Notes under the pieces: model-generated
Databases searched by the model: none
Told to the model about the DNA's origin: nothing
The model's input: only the letters and a program-made list of their open reading frames with translations
Shown: positions 96-62,541 of the stretch, one piece after another
How positions within the stretch are numbered: position 1 is the stretch's first letter
Layout of the letters: each line of letters begins with the position of its first letter
Virus record (IMG/VR): IMGVR_UViG_3300042892_003817
Strand: one strand, 5' to 3'
Length of the DNA stretch: 64,000 nt
Source of the DNA: a virus
Lineage: Duplodnaviria; Heunggongvirae; Uroviricota; Caudoviricetes
Made by a program: the position numbers and the translations under genes

Positions 96-149
96 TTTTA
101 ATTGATTTCTATACCTAAATATAAGAAGAAAGATTGGTTATAGCAACTA
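96..149 (-). promoter_or_regulatory. early promoter module; in gene orientation AGTTGCT, about 20 nt spacer, TATATTTAGGTAT, about 15 nt, ATG
   Basis: tatacctaaatataag...tagcaact motif matches the Bacteroidetes -33 TTG / -7 TAnnTTTG layout and is repeated about 30 times in the window. Confidence 0.6.
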
Positions 150-560
150 TTTCTTAAAGAAAAGTTCATAAAACTTAAAAATAATTGCACATTTCTCGTA
201 CATCTCTAATTCTTTGTAGAATTCAAGCATTTCTTCTAAAGCATATTTAATGGCCTGGGGACCAAATTCATCCTTTAGCTCTTCTACTGTATCTGCCTTT
301 ATATCCTTAACCCTCTCAAGGTAATTTACAAGGCCGTTAAAGTACTTTAGCTTTATATTTTCTCTTACGGAGCCATACCTTTCCTGATATCTATTGGCAT
401 ACATTTTGTCTATAATGAAGTAATTCTCCACACCTCTGACAACCATGCCAAAAAGTATGAAGGTATTATCCATCATATCCTCTATCTTGTGTTCTTTGTA
501 AATCTCTTCATCTCCTATGGAAAATATATTGAAAAGATCATCGCTATTTAGCTTTTTCAT
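147..560 (-). CDS. hypothetical protein (137 aa)
   Basis: ORF collinear with neighbouring genes in an AT-rich phage context. Confidence 0.5.
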   Translation of the reverse strand: MKKLNSDDLFNIFSIGDEEIYKEHKIEDMMDNTFILFGMVVRGVENYFIIDKMYANRYQERYGSVRENIKLKYFNGLVNYLERVKDIKADTVEELKDEFGPQAIKYALEEMLEFYKELEMYEKCAIIFKFYELFFKK

Positions 561-996
561 CTTATATAAATATATACTTAACCTATAACGAAAAATTTTC
601 CGGAAAAAAAACTGGGGGTAGTTGGAAAATTACCTAAAAGGTTCTATATTAAATATAAGAAACAAATCTGATAAGATACAACATAAGAGGTAGGTTAGGG
701 GTATAGGTGGTAACCGTGCTAGGGTTTAGCAGCTATATAGATCAAACTTGAGAGAGAGGACACCTTGGGCAGTAATTCTTCTTCGGAAGGACTAGGATTG
801 GATTGGTTGGGTCCATAACAACATCTCTCTTAAAGCTATGTAGTATATATAAATATATACCCCCATACCTCAATTTTCATCAGAAATATACAACTCTATG
901 TGGCTCCGGATACCCGAGTAGCTACCCGTTGAGGGAACTTAACTATCAAACTTCTCTCAACTTGACCTCACCGTGACATCACCTTGACCACCGGTC

Positions 997-1023
997 AAAA
1001 AAAAAGTTAGTCCGAAGACTAAC
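997..1023 (-). terminator. rho-independent terminator: GTTAGTC-UUCG-GACUAAC hairpin followed by U9 on the minus-strand transcript
   Basis: Perfect 7-bp stem with a UUCG tetraloop and a T9 run; it overlaps the stop codon of ORF 1019..1267. Confidence 0.65.
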
Positions 1024-1267
1024 CCTTAAAAACTTCTAGGTCCTCAAACCTAATCTTCCTATCTACTCTCTTACCTAGCATGTAAGAATAGGTTTCAAAT
1101 CTTACTCTACCTATCCTCTCTACATTCATATGATAGTCCTCCATTACTACTGTACTCCTATCAGATGTTCTAAAGACCTTTGTAATAGATCTTTGATCCC
1201 TATCCAGCTTAAAGTAATTGCCTTTAATCTCGAACTCCACTCCTGCAATAAAATCTTCTCTTGTCAT
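1019..1267 (-). CDS. hypothetical protein (82 aa)
   Basis: ORF preceded by promoter module 1279-1328. Confidence 0.5.
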   Translation of the reverse strand: MTREDFIAGVEFEIKGNYFKLDRDQRSITKVFRTSDRSTVVMEDYHMNVERIGRVRFETYSYMLGKRVDRKIRFEDLEVFKG

Positions 1268-1278
1268 AATGTATCTTG

Positions 1279-1328
1279 TTTTAATTATTGATACCTAAAT
1301 ATAAGAACTCTTATTGAGGATAGCAACT
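1279..1328 (-). promoter_or_regulatory. early promoter module
   Basis: ttaattattgatacctaaatataagaac...agcaact. Confidence 0.55.
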
Positions 1329-1510
1329 CTTTAACTAACTTTCTTCCTCTAAATCTTCTAGCCACATTCCGAAGTCTTGCTCAAATTGCCCATAAGGATG
1401 ATTGATTACCTCAGTAAGATACTTATTAAAATACTCTGCAGCTTCTAATTCATTCCATCCACACTCCCTACAAGTGTTTAATATGCTTTGTGGTATTGTG
1501 ACTTCTATCG

Positions 1511-1744
1511 TCATACTATGATTACTTTTAATGATTTAATATCTACTGAGACTAATTTATTTTCTACTGTTCTTAAGACTGCTTCATCGTTCTGATCAAA
1601 CATCTCTACTAGAACTCCTACCGTTCTTCTTCCAAAGAACTTATCAACTCCTTCATAGACCATCCCTACCATAGGGGCAGTAGACTTAGGAAGCTTACTA
1701 GGAGCTCTTAACTTCCACTTACCCTTTATACATTGCTCACTCAT
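1511..1744 (-). CDS. hypothetical protein (77 aa)
   Basis: ORF whose ATG directly abuts the stop of the upstream ORF (TAGATG), suggesting translational coupling. Confidence 0.45.
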   Translation of the reverse strand: MSEQCIKGKWKLRAPSKLPKSTAPMVGMVYEGVDKFFGRRTVGVLVEMFDQNDEAVLRTVENKLVSVDIKSLKVIIV

Positions 1745-1954
1745 CTAAACTGCCTCACTATCTAATACAGCTTGAACATTCTCTAATGCTATCTTATAAC
1801 CAAAGTTCATAGCCATCTGCATTAATAATATATCCATTGACCCTTGATTAGCTTTTGCAAATGATTCTAGATCTTCTCTCGATTTTGGAGTTGCAACTAT
1901 TCCTCTCTCTAATCCTTTAAACGATGTTTCTAAAAATTGTTTTAAATCTTCCAT
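1745..1954 (-). CDS. hypothetical protein (69 aa)
   Basis: ORF preceded by promoter module 1966-2017. Confidence 0.45.
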   Translation of the reverse strand: MEDLKQFLETSFKGLERGIVATPKSREDLESFAKANQGSMDILLMQMAMNFGYKIALENVQAVLDSEAV

Positions 1955-1965
1955 GATGTTATAGT

Positions 1966-2017
1966 TTTAATTATTAATGATACCTAAAGATAAGAAGAAG
2001 CCTCCGAAGAGGCAACT
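1966..2017 (-). promoter_or_regulatory. early promoter module with a GCCUC-UUCG-GAGGC hairpin embedded in the spacer (2000-2013)
   Basis: atacctaaagataagaag + gcctccgaagaggc + aact. The hairpin probably also terminates upstream gene 2019..2375. Confidence 0.55.
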
Positions 2018-2018
2018 T

Positions 2019-2375
2019 TTATTCATCATCTCTTTCTTCATCAACTCTCTCTAATTCAACTAAATCATCTGCTTCACCAAAGTCCATAAAGTTATTCTCT
2101 AAAGCTTCTCTTAAGTTTTCCAATTGAAGAGGAACATTAGTTACTTCAATTCTATTATTATAACTTATTTCAAACTCTACTGAATCAAAGTCAACAATAT
2201 CCGATTCATTATTATCAGCCCAGCTAATAACTTTATCAATTGCTCTTTCAATATCATCTACTGAAATTACTCTTCCTCCTCCTTCAACTGAATTGATAAG
2301 CTTAATAACATCTTCTCTACTGAAGATTGAAGATGCTGAATTTTCCACTAACTGTAATACGAATTCTTTTTTCAT
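2019..2375 (-). CDS. hypothetical, highly acidic protein (118 aa, D/E-rich C-terminus)
   Basis: ORF with strongly biased acidic composition. Confidence 0.5.
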   Translation of the reverse strand: MKKEFVLQLVENSASSIFSREDVIKLINSVEGGGRVISVDDIERAIDKVISWADNNESDIVDFDSVEFEISYNNRIEVTNVPLQLENLREALENNFMDFGEADDLVELERVDEERDDE

Positions 2376-2385
2376 AATGATTTGT

Positions 2386-2449
2386 TTTTAATTATTGATT
2401 AATTAATTTTGATACCTAAATATATGAACTAACTTTGTAACTAGCAACT
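2386..2449 (-). promoter_or_regulatory. early promoter module
   Basis: gatacctaaatatatgaactaactttgtaactagcaact. Confidence 0.55.
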
Positions 2450-2454
2450 TTATT

Positions 2455-2643
2455 TTAAAAAGATCTTTCCCAATCTCTCTCTTTGACATCATCAATAATG
2501 TCCGAAAGTGTTTGACATAATTCTTCTTCAAAGTCAACATCATCAAGAGATGTTCCTGCTTCTTTGTACTCTGCAATTAGTTCATCAATCTCTTCAATGA
2601 ATCTTGCTTTAATCAACTTTAATTCTTTAAATGCTTTTGCCAT
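2455..2643 (-). CDS. hypothetical protein (62 aa)
   Basis: ORF with promoter module 2655-2703. Confidence 0.45.
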   Translation of the reverse strand: MAKAFKELKLIKARFIEEIDELIAEYKEAGTSLDDVDFEEELCQTLSDIIDDVKERDWERSF

Positions 2644-2707
2644 GATTTTATTTGTTTTAATTATTGATACCTAAATATATGAACTAACTTTGTAACTAGC
2701 AACTATT

Positions 2708-2932
2708 TTATGCAAAAGGATCAACATATTTTTTAACCTCATGCTTCATTACTCTATATAGATTTCCATCCACTCCTTGAACAATCATAGAGACTTTGTT
2801 TATATTTCCAACTGTTCCATAAACTATTCTACGACTTGGAGAATAATTATCATCGTTATTGCTCATAGAGAATTGAACTCTCTCTCCTTGTACAAATGTA
2901 ACTTCTTTTTGATCTTTGATTAATGTAGCCAT
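2708..2932 (-). CDS. hypothetical protein (74 aa)
   Basis: ORF with promoter module 2944-2993. Confidence 0.45.
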   Translation of the reverse strand: MATLIKDQKEVTFVQGERVQFSMSNNDDNYSPSRRIVYGTVGNINKVSMIVQGVDGNLYRVMKHEVKKYVDPFA

Positions 2933-2993
2933 GATTTTATATGTTTTAATTATTGATATCTAAATATATGAAATAACTTTGTAACTAGCAACT

Positions 2994-3404
2994 TTAATCA
3001 TGACTTTTTTCCAACTCTATTAGCTCTTCCCAAAGGTCTTCTACATACCCTCTATCAGCTGAAAACATTAATTGTCTAGTCATTTGATCTTCTAGTCCAA
3101 CCTTCTCTATTATATGTTGCATTGTTTCTCCATCTATCTCCATATGTCTTAACATAGAGATTACTTCTTCTACCATTCCTGGATGTAATTGCATTAACAT
3201 TGTTTCTTCTTGTATGAAGTAAGATTTGAAATAACCTTTCTCACACCAACTAATAACTACCTCTCTTTTATCTTCAGTAGTTAATGTTATGGAATTTGTA
3301 TCATAGACCTCTATAACATCTGCGAAGTCCAATTCAAATTCTCTTTGTGTGCTATTAGAAGCCTGTACGATGTAGTAGTTTACATCTCTAAATAATTTAG
3401 TCAT
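2994..3404 (-). CDS. hypothetical protein (136 aa)
   Basis: ORF. Confidence 0.5.
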   Translation of the reverse strand: MTKLFRDVNYYIVQASNSTQREFELDFADVIEVYDTNSITLTTEDKREVVISWCEKGYFKSYFIQEETMLMQLHPGMVEEVISMLRHMEIDGETMQHIIEKVGLEDQMTRQLMFSADRGYVEDLWEELIELEKSHD

Positions 3405-3430
3405 AGTCTTATTTTTTAAATTAATATTAA

Positions 3431-3613
3431 TTACTCTTGAACATTACATAAATCCTGAGAAAGAATATAGTCATATAAACAATCCATCTTTCTTACAAAA
3501 CTTAAATCAGTCAAATAAGATCGAGATAAAAAACTCTCTAATACATGATCATCTATTCCTCCTAGATCAACATAACCATAATTCAAATCAAAGTACTCTC
3601 TAACTTCTTTCAT
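3431..3613 (-). CDS. hypothetical protein (60 aa)
   Basis: ORF with promoter module 3624-3672. Confidence 0.4.
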   Translation of the reverse strand: MKEVREYFDLNYGYVDLGGIDDHVLESFLSRSYLTDLSFVRKMDCLYDYILSQDLCNVQE

Positions 3614-3740
3614 AATATATCTTTTTAATTATTGATACCTAAATATACGAAATAGATTAGTAACTAGCAACTATTTCACAAACTATTTTAACCCAAAAAG
3701 GCCCCTAATAGGAGCCCTTTCTTCGATCAATAATTAAAAA

Positions 3741-4529
3741 CTATTCAGCTAAAGTGTGCTGAACAATATCTTTACGTAGTCCATGAACTTGATCAATTAT
3801 AGAACTAACGTTTACTTTTTCTTCTTGAGAGGCATTTCCTCCATGAGCCCATTTAAAGACTGCAGTACCTGTCTTTCCTGATTTAGAAATATCAGTTAAT
3901 CTGATGCTTACTACATTCGGAGAGTAGTTCCATTTCAATTGAATATTTCTTCCTTTCTCAAAATCAACTCCCTGCCCTTTCAAATCCATTTCAATCTTTT
4001 CTTTCTCTAAGAAAGTAATCAAATTATCAACTCCACTAATCTCTCTTCCTAAATCTTGCATTTCTTTAAACACTGCATTATATTGCTCCTTGAAAGGAAA
4101 TACAGCTTCATTTGCAGCTTCAACTATTTCATCATGCTTTTCATGAATAATTCCTGCAATCGTTCCTAACATTTGTAATCTCTTCAACTCCCAAGCATCA
4201 ACTCCTTTTGTTGAAGTTGTATAGTAAGATAAATCAATCCCTGTATAAGATCTTTTATCTTTACCTTCTTCAAAATTCCAATTCTCTCTTAAATAAAGGC
4301 TGAATAATTCCTTCTTGTAAGTAAATTCTGGATGAGCCATTTTAAAATAAACAGACCCTCTAGTTACTTCGACTTCTACATCATATGGAAATACTCCATA
4401 AAATCCTACTAAGGCATCTGATAAAGCTTTTTGCTCTCTTACATAGATGTCTCCTCTTTTACTTTCTAATGCTTCTTTCTTAACTGTAAGGATTGCTTTT
4501 TGATCCTCTAATAAATTTAATCTTGTCAT
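3741..4529 (-). CDS. hypothetical protein (262 aa)
   Basis: ORF with promoter module 4541-4590. Confidence 0.55.
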   Translation of the reverse strand: MTRLNLLEDQKAILTVKKEALESKRGDIYVREQKALSDALVGFYGVFPYDVEVEVTRGSVYFKMAHPEFTYKKELFSLYLRENWNFEEGKDKRSYTGIDLSYYTTSTKGVDAWELKRLQMLGTIAGIIHEKHDEIVEAANEAVFPFKEQYNAVFKEMQDLGREISGVDNLITFLEKEKIEMDLKGQGVDFEKGRNIQLKWNYSPNVVSIRLTDISKSGKTGTAVFKWAHGGNASQEEKVNVSSIIDQVHGLRKDIVQHTLAE

Positions 4530-4628
4530 AATGTTATATGTTTTAATTATTGATACCTAAATATACGAACATTAATTTAAACTGGCAACTATTTTAACAA
4601 CTTTTTTTAATTTATTTTTAAGCCCTTT

Positions 4629-4925
4629 TTACAGGGCTTTTAACAATTCTCTTTCAGCATCATTTGAAACTGATTTACTCATTGCTCCGATATTCCACGT
4701 TACAATTTCATCTGATGATAATGGACGATAATATTTCCAATCGTAAATCGCAAATACTTCCCCTTCATCAGTTTCCATATCCCATTCAAAATTCACTTTG
4801 TCATCTCCTGTATTATCGACAATCGTCGGATCTCCGAAAGCTTTTGTTAATTGATCAACTGAAGCTCGAATTGTAATTCCGTGAAATGACGTCCCGTCAG
4901 TGCTTTGATAAGTTTTTTTTGCCAT
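4629..4925 (-). CDS. hypothetical protein (98 aa)
   Basis: ORF with promoter module 4935-4987. Confidence 0.5.
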   Translation of the reverse strand: MAKKTYQSTDGTSFHGITIRASVDQLTKAFGDPTIVDNTGDDKVNFEWDMETDEGEVFAIYDWKYYRPLSSDEIVTWNIGAMSKSVSNDAERELLKAL

Positions 4926-4992
4926 GATTTTATATGTTTTAATTATTGATATCTAAATATATGAACTTTAATTCAATTGAGCAACTTTTTTA

Positions 4993-5265
4993 TTAATTAT
5001 TTTTCATTACTGCTTTTAAAAATTCATCAAGCAAATCTTCATCTGCTCCGAAATATCCCAATTCTTGAAGATTATCATCTTCTAAATCTTTAATAACATC
5101 TCCGAATGATTCGTAAGCGTCAATTTGAAATACTAATTCTCCGAGATTCGAATAATGAGCTCTATATGACAGAGCATCAAAATCTAAATCTTCTTTTCTA
5201 ATATCGTACAAATCATTCGCTTGAGAAATTAAAATCGCTTTTGCTTTTTCTAATAATGTTTTCAT
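4993..5265 (-). CDS. hypothetical acidic protein (90 aa)
   Basis: ORF preceded by promoter module 5275-5326 containing a GCCCC-UUCG-GGGGC hairpin (5309-5322). Confidence 0.5.
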   Translation of the reverse strand: MKTLLEKAKAILISQANDLYDIRKEDLDFDALSYRAHYSNLGELVFQIDAYESFGDVIKDLEDDNLQELGYFGADEDLLDEFLKAVMKNN

Positions 5266-5332
5266 GTTTTTATCTGTTTTAATTATTGATATCTAAAGAT
5301 AAGAAATAGCCCCCGAAGGGGCAACTATTTTA

Positions 5333-5641
5333 CTAGTTATTTTTTAAAAAGTTTTCTTTAACTGAAGTTGGAACATAATAACGATATAGATTTCTACTAT
5401 CGTTTTTCTTTTTCCATAGAAATCTTTTATACAGACCTTTTTGAAGTCCACGTCTTAATAAGTCCGCGTATTTTTTATTTGTTTCAATTTGTCTATAACC
5501 ATATCGAAAATAGTCAAAAACATTTTCTTGAATTTCAGTTTCAGTTTGAAAAGGATTTTCGATTAAATACTGAACAATTTGTTTAACTGAATTTCTTGGT
5601 TGGTCAAAACCTTTTCCCATTAACATAGTTGAATAACCCAT
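5333..5641 (-). CDS. hypothetical basic protein (102 aa)
   Basis: ORF with promoter module 5652-5702. Confidence 0.5.
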   Translation of the reverse strand: MGYSTMLMGKGFDQPRNSVKQIVQYLIENPFQTETEIQENVFDYFRYGYRQIETNKKYADLLRRGLQKGLYKRFLWKKKNDSRNLYRYYVPTSVKENFLKNN

Positions 5642-5852
5642 AGTTTATATTGTTTTAATTATTGATACCTAAATATAAGAACTAAAATTTAAACGAGCAA
5701 CTTTTTATACAACTTTTTTTAATTAATTTAAAGATAAATTTGCTTGGGCCATTCTAACAATTAATTCCTGAGGATTAAAGGACATAAAAGAAACTCCTTT
5801 TAATTCTACTTCATAGTAGATAATTCCTGGTAGTACTATTTTTTTCATATCT

Positions 5853-6227
5853 CTATTCGTTTAATAAGAAAGCTTTATCTGCCCAAGTCTTAGCATTTAC
5901 AGCTTTATATTGATTGTGATCCATTAGATTTGTATTATAGAACAATTGATTGATTGTTCCTACCTCTACCTTCTCAGCTAACTTCTCATCTAATAAGATT
6001 ACCTTTGTACCTTTCTTAGCAAATACTGTTGTCCAATAGTTAGTCCCTTTACCTTTGAACTGGATAGTCTGAAGAGCTCCTTTCTTCCATCTATTAAGAG
6101 AAGGTATATCAGAACCTATCTCTGTAGCTATCATAAAGCCTGCTGGTACTTTTGTAATGGCCTGGAAGATACCCTCTCTATCTCCTATCCAATTTACTAC
6201 CGTTAAATCTTTGATGTTGTTTATCAT
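5853..6227 (-). CDS. hypothetical protein (124 aa)
   Basis: ORF with promoter module 6237-6288. Confidence 0.5.
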   Translation of the reverse strand: MINNIKDLTVVNWIGDREGIFQAITKVPAGFMIATEIGSDIPSLNRWKKGALQTIQFKGKGTNYWTTVFAKKGTKVILLDEKLAEKVEVGTINQLFYNTNLMDHNQYKAVNAKTWADKAFLLNE

Positions 6228-6336
6228 TTTTTCTATGTTTTAATTATTGATACCTAAATATACGGACTTTATACATACGGTCCAACTCTTATACGTTATT
6301 TATACTCATTATAAATTAAAAAAAAGTTACTAAAAT

Positions 6337-6375
6337 AGTTGCTAGTAACAAAGATCGTTCGTATCTTTAGGTATG
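6337..6375 (+). promoter_or_regulatory. promoter module in PLUS orientation (AGTTGCTAGTAACAAAGATCGTTCGTATCTTTAGGTATG), the only plus-strand copy in the window
   Basis: Exact reverse-complement arrangement of the module used by minus-strand genes. No plus-strand ORF follows it. Confidence 0.5.
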
Positions 6376-6385
6376 TTAGAAGGGA

Positions 6386-6520
6386 ATACGGGGCCTGGCT
6401 TTGAAAGAGAGTCGGAAGAGTAGACGGGCCGGTACGCCATGTTCGTTACTTAAAGCAAAGCTTTAACTTAAACTGTTACTTTAACTTAAAGTGATGCTTT
6501 AACTGAATATTTTACTTAAA
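6386..6520 (+). ncRNA. candidate non-coding or antisense transcript driven by the plus-orientation promoter
   Basis: Segment downstream of the plus promoter is locally GC-rich (gggaatacggggcctggc...gacgggccggtacgcc), has no ORF, and is followed by ttaaagc/ctttaact repeats. Confidence 0.25.
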
Positions 6521-6527
6521 GGAAAGC

Positions 6528-6680
6528 TTTAGATAAAAGGAAAGGGCCCTTGTGAGGCCCCTGCTTGGAAGAGGAGTGCTTCTCCTTCCTGGTGTAGGTC
6601 TTCTTAGACTTCTGAATGGTATGCCGTGAGGCTGCCCATCGCTCTTGCATTGTAATCTGAATCTGTTTCATAGGTATAGG
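6528..6680 (-). CDS. small basic protein (about 50 aa, MKQIQITMQERWAASRHTIQKSKKTYTRKEKH...)
   Basis: ATG at 6678-6680 immediately downstream of ORF 6682..6892. Below the 60-aa cutoff of the ORF track. Confidence 0.3.
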
Positions 6681-6681
6681 T

Positions 6682-6892
6682 TTAATAAAAATACATATTG
6701 TGAACCGTCTGAATAGGAAGCTTAAATTTCTTACCCACTGAGATATTACTCCATTGGTTCCTATTATACATAGTAGGAGTTACTTCAAGTAAGCACCAAA
6801 GAGAAGTTACCGTAAGCAATTTAGCCCTCAGTGTAGGAGAATTATTACATGAACAATCCTTTCCTATTACCTTATTTAATTCCTTTACCATA
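6682..6892 (-). CDS. hypothetical protein (70 aa). The track ORF 6682..7101 is trimmed here to the first ATG downstream of promoter module 6905-6947
   Basis: The upstream part of the track ORF translates the iteron array and promoter module and is implausible as coding sequence. Confidence 0.4.
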
Positions 6893-6904
6893 TGATTATT
6901 TGTT

Positions 6905-6947
6905 TTTATATACCTAAAGATAAGAACCATAGGCCATATAAGCAACT
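6905..6947 (-). promoter_or_regulatory. early promoter module
   Basis: tatacctaaagataagaaccataggccatataagcaact. Confidence 0.5.
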
Positions 6948-7006
6948 CTTTTATAGGCTTTTTACCCCCGAAGGGGATAAGTACCTGGTTTCTACCGGGG
7001 AAAGAA

Positions 7007-7140
7007 ACGGGTTCCAAACAGGTAAAGAGAACGGGTCTCAATTGGGTCACTAGACGGGTAACAAAACGGGTAGCTAGAACGGGTTTGTAACGGGTAACCA
7101 ATCGGGTTACTAGAGAGTGAAACGGGGCTATAGAACGGGT
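7007..7140. repeat. iteron array 1: about 11 copies of (G/A)AACGGGT-like heptamers at roughly 11-12 bp centre-to-centre spacing
   Basis: acgggt at 7007, 7031, 7055, 7066, 7079, 7090, 7135 plus degenerate copies (acaggt, ttgggt, tcgggt, acgggg). Confidence 0.6.
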
Positions 7141-7410
7141 ATCTACTATAGGTTTTCCTTATTATAGAAAAAAACTATTAAGGAGACACACCCGCCACAT
7201 TTTTCCTATCCTTATTTTACCTAGCCTTATCCTCTTTCTTACACATCGTATATACTGTACAGTACCTTTTCTTACCTAGTACTCTATGTCTTTATACTCT
7301 TTGTATGGTTTTTCTACCCTTTATGTTTAATCAAAGTCCTTCACCTTTTACTATGTATCTCAGTAGTTCTCTCTATGTCTCTCCTTATATCTCCCGTACG
7401 TGATACGTAT
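7141..7410. other. 270-bp non-coding polypyrimidine (C/T-rich on the plus strand) AT-rich tract between the two iteron arrays; candidate DNA-unwinding or origin region
   Basis: Strong strand-compositional asymmetry and no ORF, flanked by iterons. Confidence 0.4.
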
Positions 7411-7416
7411 GTATAA

Positions 7417-7468
7417 ACGGGTATCGAACGGGTAGAGAAACGGGTATGGAATGGGTCTATGAATGGGT
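7417..7468. repeat. iteron array 2: five (A)ACGGGT/ATGGGT copies at 11-bp spacing
   Basis: acgggt at 7417, 7428, 7440 and atgggt at 7452, 7463. Confidence 0.55.
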
Positions 7469-7648
7469 CTCTCGCCATCTTTCCAATAGCATTTCTCCTA
7501 TCTTCATCCTGTCTTCTAGGCCCTTTAATTCCTTTATTACCTTAGGTGTCTGTTCTCTTTCCTTTAATTGTTCTCTCCTCTTTACTACCTTTCGTATTAT
7601 ATGATTTGAATTAGGATCCTTTAACTTATTTATTCCCCATACTTCCAT
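7457..7648 (-). CDS. hypothetical protein (63 aa)
   Basis: ORF. Confidence 0.35.
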   Translation of the reverse strand: MEVWGINKLKDPNSNHIIRKVVKRREQLKEREQTPKVIKELKGLEDRMKIGEMLLERWRETHS

Positions 7649-7649
7649 A

Positions 7650-7901
7650 CTATAGAATAATTGCCTTTACTATATGATAATCACTATTAGTACTGCCGTA
7701 CATATCATCTACTCTTTCATGTGTACCGTAATACCATTCTGTATTTACATCTAAGGCTACATGTATGATTGCTGGAGTATTATTATCTATACCATTTCCT
7801 ATTACCATATCATTTACTCCTCCTTCATATCCTTTTGTCATTACCTTTATGTCTTGGTCTTCTATCTTACTTAGACTTTCAATTAGTTCTTTTACGGTCA
7901 T
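7650..7901 (-). CDS. hypothetical protein (83 aa)
   Basis: ORF. Confidence 0.4.
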   Translation of the reverse strand: MTVKELIESLSKIEDQDIKVMTKGYEGGVNDMVIGNGIDNNTPAIIHVALDVNTEWYYGTHERVDDMYGSTNSDYHIVKAIIL

Positions 7902-8113
7902 ATCTTTTTAATTTGTATTTGCCAAACTTCTTTTACCTTTATATGTCCATGTTCATCTACCTTACCTATATGTTTTAATAAGGCCATATGACTATTCTTT
8001 TTTACTAGAGTGAATGTCTTTGGATCATAATAGTCTCTAAGGGTAATAATATAACCTATCCTTCTACATATTCTCCAATAAAGATTTCCTATTAGCTTTT
8101 TCATATTATTCAT
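7898..8113 (-). CDS. hypothetical protein (71 aa)
   Basis: ORF with a 4-bp overlap to its neighbour. Confidence 0.4.
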   Translation of the reverse strand: MNNMKKLIGNLYWRICRRIGYIITLRDYYDPKTFTLVKKNSHMALLKHIGKVDEHGHIKVKEVWQIQIKKI

Positions 8114-8324
8114 CCGCTGCTAAAAATATTGATACTATAAGAGCCATTACCATATACAACCTAACATAGGCCCATTCAATATTTGGTTCAAGAATACTCC
8201 ATGTCATAAAACATCCTATTGCATATAATACTATACAAAGTGCTAATGGCAAGGCTATAAAGAACCCTAAATAAATTTCTAAAAACTTTTTCATATCTCT
8301 TCCAATGTCATTATTGATATACAA
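8106..8324 (-). CDS. hypothetical membrane protein (72 aa, 2 TM)
   Basis: ORF with hydrophobic segments. Confidence 0.4.
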   Translation of the reverse strand: MYINNDIGRDMKKFLEIYLGFFIALPLALCIVLYAIGCFMTWSILEPNIEWAYVRLYMVMALIVSIFLAADE

Positions 8325-8485
8325 TGAGGGAAGTTATCATAGTCTCTGAGTATAACAAGGCCCTGAGATTCTACCACCTGTACGGCTATTCCTTCTATAA
8401 TCCTTCCTACACCTTTTCTAGAGTTGAAAGCTATTTTAACTCCCTTATACTTTTTCTTATACAATTCAACTTCCTGTATCTTCAT
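8291..8485 (-). CDS. hypothetical protein (64 aa)
   Basis: ORF. Confidence 0.35.
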   Translation of the reverse strand: MKIQEVELYKKKYKGVKIAFNSRKGVGRIIEGIAVQVVESQGLVILRDYDNFPHCISIMTLEEI

Positions 8486-8622
8486 CCTCTATAATTGTTA
8501 GTAAGTAATTAACTCCTTGTTCTGATTTCTTAACCTCTCCTGAGGCTATTAATTCCTCTACCTCTCTGGCTCTTCCATGAGACATAAGAGCAATGGTCTG
8601 TTCCATGTATATTACTTTCATA

Positions 8623-8877
8623 CTATTGTATCATTTCAAATACATGCCACACAAAATATCCTTCCATGTATGTACAAATGTATTTCATATTGTCTTCCAC
8701 TTCCCATCCTGTACCAACAGTGGATATAAATCTATCCTCTAATACATTCTCTGGATCTACTAAAGCCCATAGCATTGGTCTCCCATCTTGAATCTGTACT
8801 GTAAGTATCTCTGCCCCTTTTGGAAGCTTCATACTAGCATCTTGTGATCTTAATTCGTACTTGTAAATTGTTTTCAT
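8623..8877 (-). CDS. hypothetical protein (84 aa)
   Basis: ORF. Confidence 0.4.
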   Translation of the reverse strand: MKTIYKYELRSQDASMKLPKGAEILTVQIQDGRPMLWALVDPENVLEDRFISTVGTGWEVEDNMKYICTYMEGYFVWHVFEMIQ

Positions 8878-8927
8878 ATAGTTTTTATTTAGATTTTACC
8901 TCCAACAACCTGGAGGGTTGGGAGAAA

Positions 8928-8974
8928 TTGCGCGTGACACCTTCGGTGAGTAGTCTTGCGCCCCCTCCCCTTCG
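8928..8974. repeat. GC-rich 47-bp element, copy A: TTGCGCGTGACACCTTCGGTGAG...CGCCCCCTCCCCT
   Basis: Near-identical second copy at 30887-30927. Contains a CACC-UUCG-GUG hairpin and a G/C-rich run in an otherwise AT-rich genome. Confidence 0.5.
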
Positions 8975-8977
8975 TTC

Positions 8978-9076
8978 TTAAATCGAATCAATCTGCTCTT
9001 GCGTTAAACTATCTCTCCATTCGTTGATGTAAGTCTCTTCCTCATCAAGCAGTACTTGTAATTCTTCTTCTGTCAT
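8978..9076 (-). CDS. small ORF (32 aa, MTEEELQVLLDEEETYINEWRDSLTQEQIDSI)
   Basis: ATG at 9074-9076; lies directly upstream of GC-rich element A. Below the track cutoff. Confidence 0.25.
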   Translation of the reverse strand: MTEEELQVLLDEEETYINEWRDSLTQEQIDSI

Positions 9077-9092
9077 AGCTCTTATCCTCTAG

Positions 9093-9341
9093 TTATACAA
9101 ATACTTCATCAGTACCATCTACCAGTATACTAATACCCTGGCATACTACAACGTACTTATCCATTCCATTGTATCGGATCATTTCACATTTAACCTTAGT
9201 CTGCTTACCGCTTACTGATAGTCCATTCATCTTAAACTTATCACCTGCTTTTAAATCTTGTACTTTCATAACCTTTATTTTTAATTGATTTCTATACCTA
9301 AATATACGAAAAAAGAGCTGCGCTAGCAACTCTTTTATCAA
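9093..9341 (-). CDS. hypothetical protein (82 aa)
   Basis: ORF. Confidence 0.45.
   Translation of the reverse strand: MIKELLAQLFFRIFRYRNQLKIKVMKVQDLKAGDKFKMNGLSVSGKQTKVKCEMIRYNGMDKYVVVCQGISILVDGTDEVFV
9276..9331 (-). promoter_or_regulatory. early promoter module (variant with agagctgcgctagcaact)
   Basis: tctatacctaaatatacgaaaaaagagctgcgctagcaact. Confidence 0.5.
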
Positions 9342-9360
9342 TTATTTTTAATATATTTTA

Positions 9361-10197
9361 CTATTTTATAGTCATCATGAAGTTTCCTCCACCGCTTGTA
9401 ATATACTGAGGTACTTTAGATCCACCTTTTCTCCATGCTTCAATCCATTGTTGTTGCAATAGCATTGGAGTTAATGTTCTCTGCTTTAAAGTATTTGCTT
9501 CTGATTCAGCTCTTGCTCTTGTAAGTGTTGATTGAGCATCTCCTTCTGCTTCTGCTACTTTAATCTTTGCTTCAGCCTCTGCTTGTTTAACTCTATTCTC
9601 AGCCATTAAAGCCTTCTGTACTGCATTATTCTTAGCATTAATAGCATTCTTGAATGATGTAGGATATTCTAGATTAGTTGTAAATTGATCCAATACAAAT
9701 CCTTCTGGCTCTAATTGTTTTCTTAATGTAGCTTTTACTTTATTATCAAATGCTTCTCTACTTGAGATTAATTGATCAGCTGTATAGCCATTGGTAACGA
9801 TTCTAAATGCTTCTGTTACTGCTGTCTTAAGGAATCCATTCTCAATACCATCTAAGTCTTTTCTATATTTTGCAAAGATCTGTGTGGCTTTATCTGGATT
9901 AATTCTATAGTTGACAATTGGACTAACATGAAACTCTGATCCATCTTTACTATTCACTACAAATGATCCTTCGTCAGTATACTCTTTATGACGAATATTG
10001 ATTGGAAATTCAAAGATGTTTGTTGTGATTGGATTATAAAAGACTGTACCTGTACACTCTGTTACTCCACTTACCCCTCTTCCTGTACCAAACTTGTTTA
10101 CTTTGATACCAATGTTACCTGAGTCAATGTTCTCACATGACATGGTTACTGCAAAAACTACTAGGATTAATCCTACTGCTACTAAAATTCTGTTCAT
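9361..10197 (-). CDS. SPFH/band-7 (prohibitin/HflK-like) domain protein with signal peptide and lipoprotein-like cysteine (278 aa)
   Basis: N-terminal MNRILVAVGLILVVFAVTMSC, plus AEAEAKIKVAEAEGDAQS repeats typical of the SPFH coiled-coil region. Confidence 0.5.
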   Translation of the reverse strand: MNRILVAVGLILVVFAVTMSCENIDSGNIGIKVNKFGTGRGVSGVTECTGTVFYNPITTNIFEFPINIRHKEYTDEGSFVVNSKDGSEFHVSPIVNYRINPDKATQIFAKYRKDLDGIENGFLKTAVTEAFRIVTNGYTADQLISSREAFDNKVKATLRKQLEPEGFVLDQFTTNLEYPTSFKNAINAKNNAVQKALMAENRVKQAEAEAKIKVAEAEGDAQSTLTRARAESEANTLKQRTLTPMLLQQQWIEAWRKGGSKVPQYITSGGGNFMMTIK

Positions 10198-10228
10198 AAC
10201 TTCTTTGTTTAAATTTGATTTATAATTA

Positions 10229-10279
10229 ATTGTTTATTATTATACCTAAATATATGAAATATATTCTTAGGAGGCAACT
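10229..10279 (-). promoter_or_regulatory. early promoter module
   Basis: tatacctaaatatatgaaatatattcttaggaggcaact. Confidence 0.5.
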
Positions 10280-10667
10280 ATTCTAGCCCTAATTTTTTTC
10301 TTTTATCTGTTCTATAACTAGAATTTTCAATGTTATCTTTAAATAACTTCTTAACTCTACTATAAGATTTACTCCATATTGGAATTACTCCTACATCAGT
10401 GATATAATATGGAAATATAATAGAGTACTGTGTTTGATAAATGGAAGGATTACTATGATGTCTAATTGTATACCCTTTTACATTAAGAACATATTTGTCA
10501 TTCCATCTTAAAGTTATTCCATTTATAAGATTTTCATTTTCAATTCTATCTAAATAATCTGAGATGTCTTTGTCTGAGATTGGAGATCCTAAATCAAATG
10601 CTGTAACAGTTTCTATAATTCCTAAAACTAATAAGCCTACAATTAATATTACTAATAATACTACCAT
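10278..10667 (-). CDS. hypothetical membrane-anchored protein (129 aa)
   Basis: N-terminal TM segment. Confidence 0.45.
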   Translation of the reverse strand: MVVLLVILIVGLLVLGIIETVTAFDLGSPISDKDISDYLDRIENENLINGITLRWNDKYVLNVKGYTIRHHSNPSIYQTQYSIIFPYYITDVGVIPIWSKSYSRVKKLFKDNIENSSYRTDKRKKLGLE

Positions 10668-10669
10668 AA

Positions 10670-10903
10670 CTATTCTTCTTTTTCCTGTTTAACCTCTTCT
10701 TTTACTTCTTCCTCAGGCTTGATTATTTTCATTATATACAATCCTAAGAATCCAAATGCTACAAATACTATTCCAAGTATCAATACTCCTAAGTTGAATA
10801 GATAACTATCTGGCCTATTCAGCAGATACATTCCTAGATCTACTAACTGAACTAATCCTAATCCTAGGAAAAATCCTACTAAAACTTTAATAACTGTCTT
10901 CAT
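10670..10903 (-). CDS. hypothetical membrane protein (77 aa, 2 TM, KEE-rich tail)
   Basis: ORF. Confidence 0.45.
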   Translation of the reverse strand: MKTVIKVLVGFFLGLGLVQLVDLGMYLLNRPDSYLFNLGVLILGIVFVAFGFLGLYIMKIIKPEEEVKEEVKQEKEE

Positions 10904-11106: not shown

Positions 11107-11108
11107 AA

Positions 11109-11351: not shown

Positions 11352-11352
11352 T

Positions 11353-51961: not shown

Positions 51962-52013
51962 TGTTTAATTATTATACCTAAATATATGAAAAAAGAGTTG
52001 AACTAGCAACTCT
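51962..52013 (-). promoter_or_regulatory. early-type promoter module
   Basis: tatacctaaatatatgaaaaaagagttgaactagcaact. Confidence 0.5.
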
Positions 52014-52026
52014 TTTAACAATTATT

Positions 52027-54526: not shown

Positions 54527-54817
54527 TTAATCTATTGTATTAACTGGGAATAACATATTTCCTTTTATTGATATTTTTTTACTTGATGTAGAATCTATTA
54601 CCAAGTCTGCACTGTATAATGCTCTCTTTGTAATCTCTACATCCATTGTTACTGTCTTTTCATTTACCTTACTTATAGTACCTATTCGTACATAAGTAAA
54701 TCCATTTTCATTTCTGGAGTATCCGTATCGCTGTCCTATTTGAATCTCTATTCCTAATGCATCTTTCATAATCTTTTTTCTATACCTAAATATACGAATA
54801 AAAGCCTGCCTAAGCAA
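54527..54817 (-). CDS. hypothetical protein (96 aa)
   Basis: ORF with promoter module 54775-54822. Confidence 0.4.
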   Translation of the reverse strand: MLRQAFIRIFRYRKKIMKDALGIEIQIGQRYGYSRNENGFTYVRIGTISKVNEKTVTMDVEITKRALYSADLVIDSTSSKKISIKGNMLFPVNTID

Positions 54818-55158
54818 GCTTTTTGTTAATTATTTTTAAAAAAATGTTGCTGGGATGTAAAGCATATAGCCTAGGTCAAATGCAAAATCAAAGTCAAAAA
54901 CCTTCCACTACCACAAGGGCAAGGACAAAAACTAAGTCTTAGAGTCGCTAGCCACTTTTAGTCTCCCTCAAGAGTAACATGTCTAGCTGTTGAGTTCTAT
55001 CTCAGTTTGGTTTAAGTTGTAGGGAAGCGAGTTTTAAAGGGCCCATGGCCGTTTAGTCTGTAGATGATTACATATATCATATAGTTTATATTTAAAACTC
55101 TACTATCCCAGCATAAAGCTTTGGAGGATCGGCTTGTGCTTACCTCCTTAGCACCAAA

Positions 55159-56301: not shown

Positions 56302-56368
56302 ATTACCTTTATTTTTATTTAATATAAGAAGAAAGGTTCAGGTTTCCAAACCTTTCTCCGAATATTTC

Positions 56369-57654: not shown

Positions 57655-57703
57655 CTTTCTTATACCTTAATATATGAAACTATTTCTGGTTTTCCAAACC
57701 TTT
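57655..57703 (-). promoter_or_regulatory. promoter module (TTTCCAAACC variant) positioned to drive tRNA block 1
   Basis: ataccttaatatatgaaactatttctggttttccaaacc; the GGTTTGG -33 element is on the minus strand. Confidence 0.45.
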
Positions 57704-57838
57704 ATTGCAATACTTACAATTATTTTTTTCCTTTTCTGATTGATGGATTCTTTTATTTTCATTACAATACCATTTTTTATCATAAGGAATAAAATTCTCC
57801 CATTTATCATAATATCCTGGCTTCCACTCTTCCATTAT

Positions 57839-60789: not shown

Positions 60790-60834
60790 TTATTTATATA
60801 CCTAAAGATACGATCTTTAATTCTTTCTAGCAAC
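60790..60834 (-). promoter_or_regulatory. promoter module positioned to drive tRNA block 2
   Basis: tatacctaaagatacgatctttaattctttctagcaact, immediately upstream (minus sense) of tRNA-Ser(TGA). Confidence 0.5.
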
Positions 60835-60841
60835 TTTTTTT

Positions 60842-60880
60842 AAATAAAAAACCCGAATCTTTTTTATTTGATCCGGGTTC
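60842..60880 (-). terminator. rho-independent terminator (8-bp stem CCCGGAUC/GAUUCGGG with a U-rich tail on the minus transcript)
   Basis: aacccgaatcttttttatttgatccgggtt. Confidence 0.45.
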
Positions 60881-61055
60881 TTATTAGAATTTATATGTAT
60901 AAGTTAATTATATCATACCCCGGTCTTGCCTTTTTTCGGTTCGTTATTATACGTAAAGCCTACAATCACATCTCCACATAACGAATCCGACCATATACTA
61001 ATGGCTCTCTGCGCTGTAAGATTAAGTTGATGTATGTTTTGTTGTGCTTTCATTT

Positions 61056-61105
61056 TATTTGTTTCTATATATAAATATATGAACTTTTCCTTTCCAAACC
61101 AACTA
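61056..61105 (-). promoter_or_regulatory. promoter module (TTTCCAAACC variant)
   Basis: tatatataaatatatgaacttttcctttccaaaccaact. Confidence 0.4.
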
Positions 61106-61114
61106 TTAAATAAA

Positions 61115-61597
61115 TTATTTTAAAATATTATCTAATTGTTGTCCTATTGTTTTATAGATTGTTAAATTCTGGTGAGGTTCATTTCTTCCTATTGCTGGAT
61201 TTATTATGATTCCTCCTTCTTTTTCGTACTGTTTATAATAATTATTTACTTTTTCTTCTGTTATTCTTTTGTTTCCTCCCCAACCCCATGATCCTTTTAT
61301 TACATAAATGGTAGCATTTGGAAAAGTTTTCTTTACTGCTTTGAATAATTCTTTAATATTTCCTGTTCGGAAATTGTTATTTGTTCCTATACATAAAATT
61401 ATATTTTTTACTTTAGGAGATGTTTTATAATTTGAAACCATTGAGGTCAATTTATCAACTCCTATCCCTCCCTTCCATAAAGAGCTTACTTTTTCTACCT
61501 TATTTGAATTTTTATCAATGTAAGGTGTTTGTGAGTCTCCTATTATGATATTCTGAGAATAGCATAGTAATGGGATGAAATATATTATGTATAATAG
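61115..61597 (-). CDS. putative secreted lipoprotein; the reading frame is open about 50 codons upstream of the track start and encodes a KKLLYIIYFIPLLC signal peptide with lipobox, but no in-frame ATG
   Basis: Frame stays open from 61450 back to about 61620. The track start is a TTG; the true start may be a non-ATG codon, or there may be a sequence error. Confidence 0.35.
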   Translation of the reverse strand, partial: LLYIIYFIPLLCYSQNIIIGDSQTPYIDKNSNKVEKVSSLWKGGIGVDKLTSMVSNYKTSPKVKNIILCIGTNNNFRTGNIKELFKAVKKTFPNATIYVIKGSWGWGGNKRITEEKVNNYYKQYEKEGGIIINPAIGRNEPHQNLTIYKTIGQQLDNILK

Positions 61598-61628
61598 TTT
61601 TTTAATAATTACCGTTCTTTGGGTTAAT

Positions 61629-61958
61629 TTATCCTTTTAATAACTTGTCTTTAACTGGCTCACATCCGTTTCTGTCAATTGATGTAAGTTTTTGTTCTAA
61701 TTTATCTACTCTTGAATCTGTATGTCTGATACAGTCATTGAAGACATTATTTGTTCGATCAACTTCTTGATCTATTCTACGATTCACCATCTCATCGTTT
61801 CTTTGAATCCACTCTTGATGTCCTGCAATCTTTTGTTCAATCTGCTTTACTTTCTTTACTGTCTTAAACGCTACCACAACTCCCCATACAAGAAGAGCTA
61901 TACTAACACCTAAAACAAATGCTAAAATTTGTTCCATAGTTTTGTTTTTTAAATTCAA
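61629..61958 (-). CDS. membrane-anchored coiled-coil protein (109 aa)
   Basis: N-terminal TM then heptad-rich region. Confidence 0.45.
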   Translation of the reverse strand: MNLKNKTMEQILAFVLGVSIALLVWGVVVAFKTVKKVKQIEQKIAGHQEWIQRNDEMVNRRIDQEVDRTNNVFNDCIRHTDSRVDKLEQKLTSIDRNGCEPVKDKLLKG

Positions 61959-61980
61959 AGAACGGTAATCTTAAAATTTG

Positions 61981-62065
61981 GAATCGGTGAGGGATTCGAA
62001 CCCTCATCCAGACTTATCGTCCATGTTAACCCTAGCAGGAACTTTCCCGTTGACACTAACCGATT
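61981..62065 (-). tRNA. class II-length tRNA-like element (85 nt) with a perfect acceptor (AATCGGT/ACCGATT) and T-arm (GAGGG-TTCGAAT-CCCTC), but unresolved D and anticodon arms
   Basis: Hand fold; it stands alone outside the main array. Confidence 0.4.
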
Positions 62066-62278
62066 CTTTTTTTACCAACCTTGGTCTTTCAGGGTTTCTG
62101 ATTGAGTGCAATAAGTGACGCCTTCCTACTATAAACCCTTGTTCGGAAATTAATACACTCTACTTCTCAATTAACAGCGAGCATTGGTAATTTTAAAACA
62201 TTCCAGCCACATTGGGAGAGCCGCAGTTCCCACGTTGTTTAAAGACTTTCTTGGCGGACCTATCTACTGGGGTGTGTT

Positions 62279-62479
62279 TTACTTTGTGGTTGCAGCGTCG
62301 ATTGAATCCTGAACTTTTTCAGTTTCAATGATTGCACCTTCTTCTGTTGTATCAACTGATGCTGAATCAACTACTACTGCTGTTGAGTCTACTGTTGTTA
62401 ATCTTGCAGGTGCTTCTACTTTTTTACAAGACACTAATACTGCTGATACTAATGCTAATACTAAAAATACTTTTTTCAT
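62279..62479 (-). CDS. small lipoprotein (66 aa)
   Basis: MKKVFLVLALVSAVLVSC signal peptide with LVSC lipobox. Confidence 0.5.
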   Translation of the reverse strand: MKKVFLVLALVSAVLVSCKKVEAPARLTTVDSTAVVVDSASVDTTEEGAIIETEKVQDSIDAATTK

Positions 62480-62495
62480 TTTTACTTTCTTTTGT

Positions 62496-62541
62496 TATTA
62501 ATAATACTTAAAGATACGAACTTTAATTCAATTGAGCAACT
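62496..62541 (-). promoter_or_regulatory. promoter module
   Basis: atacttaaagatacgaactttaattcaattgagcaact (close copy of module 4935-4987). Confidence 0.45.

Follow-up and report, generated by a model that had tools for sequence, protein, structure and literature searches.

The 64,000-nt stretch analysed here in full (hereafter "the window"; IMG/VR virus record IMGVR_UViG_3300042892_003817, Caudoviricetes) carries all of its long open reading frames (ORFs) and its 21 transfer RNA (tRNA) genes on the - strand, and its intergenic gaps are punctuated by some 30 copies of a short repeated module, the subject of this study. By Megablast, the window is a patchy relative (83-88%) of Flavobacterium phage vB_FspM_immuto (hereafter "immuto"; NC_055915, 160 kb, Immutovirus), whose host is Flavobacterium sp. 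LMO8 from the Baltic Sea, and it corresponds to the reverse complement of immuto ~18.5-75 kb. Besides a block of small hypothetical genes, the region encodes glycosyltransferases, GroES/GroEL, a DNA polymerase, and functions in queuosine and nucleotide metabolism. The corresponding part of immuto stops a few kb short of the baseplate genes, on their upstream side, and an HNH endonuclease gene is annotated in the module-bearing part. Since immuto is annotated with T4-like Gp20 and Gp23, a prohead protease, baseplate wedge, tail sheath, and tail tube, it can be regarded as a distant T4-like myovirus.

The module is a rigid unit of 43 nt, AAAAnA-GTTGC-N15-TTC-N-TATATTTAGGTAT. Allowing up to two mismatches, the 13-mer TATATTTAGGTAT matched the window 31 times against 6.8 expected, a number that 0 of 100 shuffles reached. 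A position weight matrix (PWM) of the full module, used at a score cut-off of 8, retrieved 28 copies (27 on the - strand and 1 on the +) and none in 20 dinucleotide shuffles. TTG, TTC, and TA..TTTA are invariant across copies, and the span from GTTG to TAT is 37 nt in all 25 strict copies, without insertions or deletions. With five more degenerate copies, one of them upstream of groES, the count agrees with the figure of about 30 given in a preliminary description of this DNA. The copies are as follows, with PWM scores and, where relevant, the minimum free energy (MFE) of the folded transcript.

111-153 (-): module, no hairpin; PWM 47.9, MFE -0.8
1291-1333 (-): module, no hairpin; PWM 41.5
1980-2022 (-): module with nested C(UUCG)G hairpin at 2000-2013; PWM 48.0, MFE -11.3 (z-score -3.9), terminator-like in scan
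2412-2454 (-): module, spacer identical to that of 2667 and one base off that of 2956 (cassette map); PWM 53.3
2667-2709 (-): module; PWM 56.9
2956-2998 (-): module, spacer swapped with that of 3635 relative to immuto; PWM 46.0
3635-3677 (-): module, weak internal hairpin (MFE -5.4) and separate strong hairpin ~30 nt upstream (-15.6); PWM 50.8
4553-4595 (-): module, precise hybrid of the two immuto modules around cassette I15 (immuto flank matches), separate upstream hairpin; PWM 53.3
4949-4991 (-): module; PWM 46.7
5289-5331 (-): module with nested C(UUCG)G hairpin at 5309-5322; PWM 47.7, MFE -10.8, terminator-like
5665-5707 (-): module; PWM 52.0
6250-6292 (-): module, divergent partner of the + strand copy; PWM 33.5
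6332-6374 (+): the only opposite-strand module, preceding a candidate non-coding RNA at ~6378-6565; PWM 53.8
6910-6952 (-): module, separate UUCG hairpin just upstream (-15.7); PWM 45.3
9294-9336 (-): module, 11-bp hairpin taking in the -33 TTG (A-tract/T-tract type); PWM 51.6, MFE -13.3 (z-score -5.1)
10242-10284 (-): module; PWM 46.6
12442-12484 (-): module; PWM 53.1
13390-13432 (-): module; PWM 57.6
14615-14657 (-): module upstream of a DksA-like gene (immuto annotation); PWM 50.2
35942-35984 (-): module with degenerate -7 box, 11-bp hairpin taking in TTG; PWM 18.9, MFE -13.5, top terminator-like match
39913-39955 (-): module with degenerate -7 box, 10-bp C(UUCG)G hairpin with core 39933-39946; PWM 13.8, MFE -13.4, terminator-like
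48885-48927 (-): module with C(UUCG)G hairpin at 48905-48918; PWM 41.6, MFE -11.5, terminator-like
51974-52016 (-): module, 10-bp hairpin taking in TTG, compensatory changes in the immuto orthologue; PWM 52.5, MFE -9.2
54782-54824 (-): module, GCTTGC variant, 10-bp hairpin taking in TTG; PWM 36.7, MFE -13.4
57662-57704 (-): module upstream of tRNA block 57569-56666; PWM 15.2
60798-60840 (-): module upstream of tRNA block 60752-58677, separate terminator-type hairpin just upstream (-16.2); PWM 49.3
61067-61109 (-): module, variant TATATTTATATAT; PWM 27.6
62504-62546 (-): module; PWM 46.7
56314-56356 (-): degenerate copy, hairpin AAAGGTT...AACCTTT and pyrimidine tail (read from the sequence); PWM -3.1
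44505-44547 (-): degenerate copy; PWM 3.2
33092-33134 (-): degenerate copy upstream of groES, GTTG-N16-TTC-A-TATATTAT (read from the sequence)
27843-27885 (-): degenerate copy with hairpin and T-run; PWM -0.2
23178-23220 (-): degenerate copy; PWM 0.3

Four UUCG hairpins that the preliminary description had placed at 2000-2013, 5309-5322, 39933-39946, and 48905-48918 were recovered exactly there. The sequence variants TTTCCAAACC and AGAGCTGCG reported in the same description do exist, with corrected positions 56343, 57691, and 61091 for the former and 9314 and 35960 for the latter, i.e., 30-38 nt from those first given. Copies said to precede the two tRNA blocks and groES were found in front of both blocks (57662-57704 and 60798-60840), and groES is preceded by a degenerate copy only. 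Of the 28 copies above the PWM cut-off, 19 lie in 1-15 kb, none in 15-35.9 kb, and 9 in 35.9-62.6 kb. Across 1-15000, these 19 modules bound 17 cassettes with roughly 38 ORFs, about nine of the cassettes (counted from the ORF list) being single-gene and one holding about eight ORFs, so that the earlier statement that nearly every small early gene has its own module was too strong.

Beyond the window, the module follows the immuto-like lineage. Immuto itself has 34 copies, of which 31 are confined to 19.8-76.2 kb; its replication block (1-19.8 kb) has none, and only three weak-scoring ones (104.4, 106.2, and 149.7 kb) lie beyond 76.2 kb. An exact-pattern scan of IMG/VR found the module in at least 112 stretches, whose loci (1 Mb) provided the sample for the PWM, which detected 550 copies, including 465 distinct ones. 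In a search of 185,579 genomes of bacteria and archaea, the same pattern matched once, in a 3.3-kb contig of a metagenome-assembled genome that is phage-like in appearance, and this near-absence rules out that the module is a copy of a host chromosomal promoter. The 50,697 GenBank phage records yielded three immuto isolates only, which likewise rules out a module common to other cultured Bacteroidetes phages, and a 50-kb stretch of Cellulophaga phage phi4:1 was devoid of it, with ordinary TAnnTTTG sites upstream of the helicase and other early-region genes. Given this distribution, the module is private to the immuto-like lineage.

The placement of the modules points to a role in transcription. 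They occupy intergenic gaps, with no copy inside genes, at a median distance of 1 nt from the preceding stop codon, which often lies inside the module's own A-tract, and the ATG follows the module end at a median of 23 nt (range 12-44). Copies share the orientation of the unit that follows, and since they also stand before the two tRNA blocks and the opposite-strand non-coding RNA candidate, they belong with transcription units and not with translation. Their sequence elements agree: the primary sigma factor of flavobacteria recognizes a -7 box TAnnTTTG at -12 to -5, with the start 4-5 nt further on (PMC9723704, PMC6847099), and when TATATTTA is placed at -12 to -5, TTG falls at -35 to -33, TTC at -16 to -14, and GGTAT at -4 to +1. 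The invariant TTG and the TA of the -7 box are separated by 20 nt, and module conservation ends exactly at the predicted +1, because the host box at -12 to -5 lies 4-5 nt before the start. An A/T-rich stretch at -20 to -18 has its counterpart in F. johnsoniae promoters (PMC6847099), and the A-rich leader of ~23 nt carries TAAAA, the ribosome-binding motif defined for Flavobacterium johnsoniae, which completes a -33/-7/TAAAA triad in agreement with strong Flavobacterium promoters (PMC2483708). In every respect that can be read from sequence, including orientation, the fixed short distance to ATG, placement at tRNA and non-coding RNA units, and the TTG and TAnnTTT elements, the evidence supports the promoter character that the preliminary description had assigned to the module. 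A scan for sigma-70-type promoters returned fewer matches than shuffles, this model being uninformative for this host.

The match to the host consensus is nonetheless incomplete. Promoters of F. johnsoniae combine a weak -33 element with near-invariant T-12, A-11, T-8, T-7, T-6, and G-5 (PMC6847099). Compared with Bacteroidetes sigma-ABfr promoters (-33 TTTG / -7 TAnnTTTG; PMC6847099, PMC9723704, PMC2483708, PMC7366714), the modules share TA at -12/-11, TTT at -8 to -6, the avoidance of G at -10/-9 (here T and A/C), five nucleotides from box to predicted start, and the TTG, A/T-rich, and leader features described above. They differ in an A at -5, in a GTTGC that stands in place of TTTG and, being almost invariant among the 465 copies, greatly exceeds the host -33 element in conservation, and in the additional invariant TTC and GGTAT. 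The modules therefore match TAHHTTTG at five of its six near-invariant positions, and of the proposed fit to the Bacteroidetes sigma-A sequence TTG plus TAnnTTTG, TTG and TAnnTTT stand, whereas the final G does not, being replaced by A in 99% of the 465 copies, followed by GG. TAHHTTTG is also scarce in gene-strand intergenic DNA as a whole: the window has 0 sites where 2.2 are expected, and the complete immuto genome has 1 where 3.6 are expected, whereas TAHHTTTA occurs there 34 and 46 times, respectively, each against ~10 expected; within genes, on the gene strand, TAHHTTTG is found 17 times in the window and 52 times in immuto. The phage appears to avoid host-type promoters altogether.

These deviations keep open the suggestion of the preliminary description that recognition is phage-specific. 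In this alternative, the modules would form a promoter class of the phage's own, like the middle promoters of T4 or the PmSLs of phage nt-1, in which GTTGC or A(-5)GGTAT would be read by a phage activator, a sigma-like factor, or a modified polymerase and not by the unmodified host enzyme. The near-universal A-5 where the host has a near-invariant G, the intergenic counts of the two box versions, the constancy of GTTGC, TTC, and GGTAT despite a weak host -33 element, and the near-absence of the full module from cellular genomes and from GenBank phages other than immuto all favor such a class, as do the canonical TAnnTTTG sites of phi4:1, the precedent of PmSLs with a Mot box (PMC4122927), and a DksA-like protein encoded beside one module. 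However, TTG and TAnnTTT are at the correct host positions, and without canonical promoters the modules would be the only candidates for the first transcription by unmodified polymerase, an objection that an injected modifier such as T4 Alt would lift. Furthermore, the immuto annotation includes no sigma factor, activator, or RNA polymerase gene, the label "RNA polymerase subunit N (RpoN/RPB10)" on the small protein gp218 being probably spurious, and the systematic departure of T4 early promoters from the consensus of their host (TTTACW vs. TTGACA) does not prevent their use of sigma-70 (PMC4122927). On balance, we consider a phage-specific class possible, if unlikely. A stronger version, in which a private promoter dialect (GTTGC...TTC.TAnnTTTA-GGTAT), unused by host genes, would run the whole non-late program and be read only after a phage factor or modification retargets the host enzyme, with hairpins that could couple the end of one cassette's transcript to re-initiation at the promoter overlapping it, seems to us rather unlikely; if true, the logic of T4 Alt, AsiA, and MotA would have its counterpart in Bacteroidetes.

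The DksA-like gene (14192-14593, - strand) lies directly downstream of module 14615-14657. Its product is the orthologue of immuto gp165, annotated as "DnaK suppressor protein" and of the DksA/TraR-like zinc-finger type; such proteins bind the secondary channel of RNA polymerase, and the orthologue is a possible phage modulator of host transcription.

A minority of copies, only ~15-30%, contain a predicted RNA hairpin nested within the module. In the window, 9 of the 28 copies fold at MFE ≤ -5 within module positions 0-29, and across the 465 copies, an MFE ≤ -8 is reached by 15% vs. 2% of spacer-shuffled controls and an MFE ≤ -10 by 13% vs. 0.4%. Three classes are apparent. The first has a 5-bp GC stem that starts at the G of TTG and is capped by C(UUCG)G, a loop found 33 times, on at least seven different perfectly complementary stems, whereas CGAA loops number 0. 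In the A-tract/T-tract class, the stem extends over 10-11 bp, and its 5' arm consists of the A-tract and G(A/G)(G/C)TTGC, paired with ...CTCTTTT, so that the -33 element lies inside the stem; with its many G·U pairs, the sense strand folds far more stably than the antisense (e.g., -9.9 vs. -0.7). In the third, GGGAGG...CCCTCC, TTG is part of the loop. To judge from compensatory variation, G·U pairs, and a UUCG loop confined to one strand, selection appears to act on the sense-strand RNA and not on a DNA palindrome or protein operator.

Several features suggest that these hairpins would end the upstream transcript. The upstream gene's stop codon lies 0-25 nt before the stem, which is followed by a TTCTTATCTTT-type tract. 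Positions 23-25 are 79-85% pyrimidine in hairpin copies vs. 33-67% in the others, and C fills the A/C position of the -7 box in 65% of the former and 26% of the latter, resulting in post-stem tracts such as TTCTTCTTATCTTT. A strong separate hairpin within 46 nt upstream was detected for 0 of 79 spacer-hairpin modules vs. 9.5% of 401 others (four such copies are in the window), and a generic terminator scan ranked module hairpins among its top gene-strand matches. Hairpin copies have the predicted hallmarks of intrinsic terminators, namely a GC-rich RNA hairpin and a U-rich tract at the end of a transcription unit. The hairpins are probably nested intrinsic terminators, the simplest reading being that they borrow the T-rich -7 region as a U-tract. 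The suggestion, made earlier for the hairpin copies, that one unit both terminates and promotes is borne out as far as sense-strand RNA signals, covarying stems, a pyrimidine tail, and exclusivity with upstream terminators can indicate.

Alternatively, the hairpins might not be terminators but 3'-end stabilizers or processing sites on read-through RNA, or might act at the DNA level as recombination signals, cruciforms, or operators. Many stems are followed by an interrupted tail such as TTCTTCTTAT, whether a copy has a hairpin is unrelated to how long its upstream unit is, and Arbiol et al. speculated that the stems of promoter-early stem-loops (PeSLs) in T4-like phages may be targets of a DNA-binding recombination protein (PMC2839356). 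A DNA-level role is at odds with the sense-RNA-specific signals, i.e., UUCG loops without a single CGAA, and G·U pairs whose opposite-strand counterparts are A·C mismatches, and a sequence-specific protein site is disfavored because stem sequence and register vary while pairing is kept. The pyrimidine enrichment at free post-stem positions, the mutual exclusion with separate upstream terminators, and the termination by PeSL stem-loops in lacZ fusions (PMC2839356) also speak for termination, with which a role in RNA stability is compatible and which it usually accompanies. We therefore judge a purely non-terminating role to be quite improbable.

Two ideas on which copies have hairpins were rejected. 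Hairpin copies do not follow long operons, the median upstream unit being 365 nt vs. 524 nt without a hairpin. Neither do hairpins mark rare, recently inserted cassettes, as their frequency at the 3' boundary is 16% vs. 16%, with a weak effect at the 5' boundary (21% vs. 13%, p = 0.04).

Modules also delimit the variation between relatives. When the small-gene region was cut at modules and compared with immuto, the backbone was collinear and cassettes were present or absent as wholes: I6-I8, I10, I15, and I18 of immuto are missing from the window, and W4, W13, and W14 are window-only, the last two being flanked by three modules of almost identical spacer (2412, 2667, and 2956). On its upstream side, module 4553 agrees with immuto module 70972 (38/40), and on its downstream side with immuto module 71242 (40/40); these two immuto modules have one common spacer and flank the 227-nt cassette I15. 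Judged by these flanks, module 4553 is the signature of a crossover between two module copies. In addition, modules 3635 and 2956 have exchanged spacers relative to immuto 72160 and 72641, with both flanks orthologous. Such an exchange would be expected from an excision crossover downstream of the spacer and then re-integration upstream, i.e., a mini-circle cycle; two gene conversions would equally yield it.

Among the IMG/VR relatives, 660 cassettes formed 330 clusters, and of the 44 clusters observed three or more times, 29 had at least two different downstream neighbors. In 40 distinct cases, a cassette X separates A and B that are adjacent elsewhere. At least 18 of 20 spacer bases are common to the flanking modules for 21% of inserted cassettes vs. 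6% of others (Fisher p = 0.009) and 1% of random pairs. The data fit recombination between modules, though not necessarily with the module as crossover site in every case.

Could the repeat instead be primarily a mobile or recombination element (a miniature transposable element, or a homing-endonuclease or integrase target) with an incidental promoter likeness? This is very improbable: high copy number, a rigid unit, cassette content that varies between relatives, and the HNH endonuclease gene in the region would all suit it, but terminal inverted repeats and target duplications are absent, 27 of the 28 copies run with the genes and the exception runs with its own downstream RNA, the distance to ATG is fixed, copies stand upstream of tRNA blocks and never inside genes, and the invariant bases are the -33/-7 elements at correct spacing.

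The modules have a parallel in the PeSLs of the T4-like myoviruses RB49/phi1, T4/PST, and KVP40/nt-1, which consist of an AT-rich region with the upstream stop, a strong early promoter, a stem-loop with G-T pairs, a ribosome-binding site, and the ATG, concentrate in hyperplastic regions, and bound insertions and deletions between close relatives (PMC2839356, PMC4122927). PeSL stem-loops between -35 and -10 have already been described, promoter and terminator activities have been demonstrated by lacZ fusions, and mini-circles were detected by inverse polymerase chain reaction (PMC2839356, PMC4122927). The nested hairpin between the -33 and -7 elements, called unusual in the preliminary description, thus has a direct precedent. 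Common to both systems are an AT-rich start with the previous stop, a promoter sequence of the primary-sigma type, where a stem-loop is present, G-T pairs in it and a position that can be between the promoter boxes, a ribosome-binding motif and ATG, richness in regions of small variable genes and rarity in the structural module, insertions, deletions, or replacements between relatives bounded by the units, a version of the sequence particular to each phage lineage, and a T4-like myovirus as the carrier, if a distant one here. The modules differ in having -33 TTG, -7 TAnnTTT(A), and TAAAA instead of -35/-10 and Shine-Dalgarno elements, a non-canonical position -5, greater rigidity (no length variation over 43 nt), one class with the -33 TTG within the 5' stem arm, and an optional stem-loop: beyond the nine window copies with a nested hairpin and the four with a separate upstream one, most copies have none. 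PeSL activities were shown experimentally, whereas those of the modules are predicted from sequence. T4 early promoters likewise number in the dozens and are near-identical, strong, and conserved beyond the host consensus, the differences being the host transcription machinery and the deduced, rather than recorded, timing of the modules. Full-text literature searches retrieved no description of such cassettes in a Bacteroidetes phage, and the modules would extend the PeSL kind to this new host phylum.

We therefore favor, as the likely explanation, a composite unit that combines promoter, terminator, and recombination linker. It joins what is observed here, i.e., the repetition, geometry, and distribution of the modules, RNA-level hairpin signals, and module-bounded cassette variation, with the promoter activity, timing, termination, and recombination mechanism that we infer from them. 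Several points weigh against it. Hairpins are present in a minority of copies, so that the stem-loop, in contrast to what the name PeSL implies, is no constant part of the unit, their presence is tied neither to upstream-unit length nor to cassette rarity, and some of the T-richness that follows the stem is a property of the promoter. The agreement of cassette boundaries with modules is in part built into the way cassettes were defined, and a gene with its own promoter would come and go as a unit without any crossover in the module. Recognition by unmodified host polymerase is not assured, because A-5 replaces a near-invariant G and because GTTGC, TTC, and GGTAT are conserved far beyond the host consensus. 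Finally, start sites, 3' ends, and timing are all predictions, "early" being deduced solely from genome position and the analogy with T4.

Under this composite reading, the modules would be strong promoters, particular to the lineage and probably early in class, of a Flavobacterium phage that is Immutovirus-like and distantly T4-like. The A-rich stretch, often carrying the previous gene's stop, would be followed by GTTGC, which supplies the -33 TTG, a free spacer of 15 nt, TTC, the -7 box TATATTTA, GGTAT up to the predicted start, the A-rich TAAAA leader, and ATG. Host RNA polymerase with its primary sigma factor, perhaps phage-modified, would start 4-5 nt past the -7 box. Since the intergenic gap is taken up entirely by the module, the intrinsic terminator of the upstream transcript would, in a minority of copies, lie inside the promoter: the transcript would fold into a GC hairpin, either capped by C(UUCG)G or with a longer G·U stem that includes TTG, and the T/C-rich TTCTTATCTTT of the -7 region would act as U-tract. 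Other copies would have a separate terminator just upstream, and most would have none, allowing read-through. As a unit of ~90 bp repeated ~30 times in one orientation, the module with its surroundings may further act as a portable homology patch, recombination between copies inserting, deleting, or swapping self-expressing cassettes, much as has been described for PeSLs.

The sole opposite-strand module (6332-6374, +) precedes a candidate non-coding RNA of ~180 nt (6378-6565, +) with no ORF of at least 26 amino acids on its strand and 98% identity to immuto, vs. ~83% in the flanking DNA. Its core, GGGGCCUG-[hairpin]-GGAAGAGUAGACGGGCCGGUAC, is invariant across 27 IMG/VR stretches, one contig having two tandem copies. 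The hairpin at 6394-6410 (P2) covaries (GGC/GUC, GCC/GGC, GAAG/CUUC, GGUGU/ACACC), with 89.5% of cells paired and double changes in 3 of 6 pairs, a value matched by 0 of 500 shuffles. The 3' part comprises a variable number of TTAAAG(C)...(G)CTTTAA hairpins and then a GC hairpin, followed in relatives by a T-run. A search against Rfam gave nothing near any gathering score, and RNAalifold on 10 sequences produced an unconvincing global fold; the P2 hairpin alone is supported. The GC hairpin GGGCCCTTGTGAGGCCCC (6542-6562) lies between this RNA and a converging - strand gene (6682-6890); in the window its T-run is on the - strand only, and in immuto, L118, and L009 it is on the RNA strand. The hairpin is probably a shared bidirectional terminator. 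The 51-amino-acid ORF that overlaps it (6516-6671) is probably not a gene.

A second short, promoter-like motif, TATTTATA (context nTATTTATAAt, without a GTTGC box), occurs ~20-35 nt upstream of the ATGs of immuto structural genes. In the late half of immuto (76.5-160 kb), 16 of 19 gene-strand matches lie just upstream of annotated coding-sequence starts; in the window it is not enriched (5 matches vs. 5 expected), gene-strand sites including 564-573, 847-856, and 26622-26631. It is probably a late-promoter class, resembling in role the T4 late motif, which is TATAAATA.

The module offers a simple sequence tag for spotting immuto-like phage contigs in metagenomes. The collection also comprises over 460 naturally occurring versions of a compact Flavobacterium promoter, probably a strong one, some with a built-in terminator and some lacking it, which could serve genetic tools in a phylum where standard promoters fail. 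The invariant A-5 and the missing canonical boxes pose a concrete, testable question on how this phage takes over host transcription. More broadly, PeSL-type cassettes and the gene shuffling linked to them would be extended from T4-like phages of Proteobacteria to one phage lineage of Bacteroidetes, and as promoter grammar in this phylum is very different, this suggests that the design is a general solution for large virulent phages with many small accessory genes.

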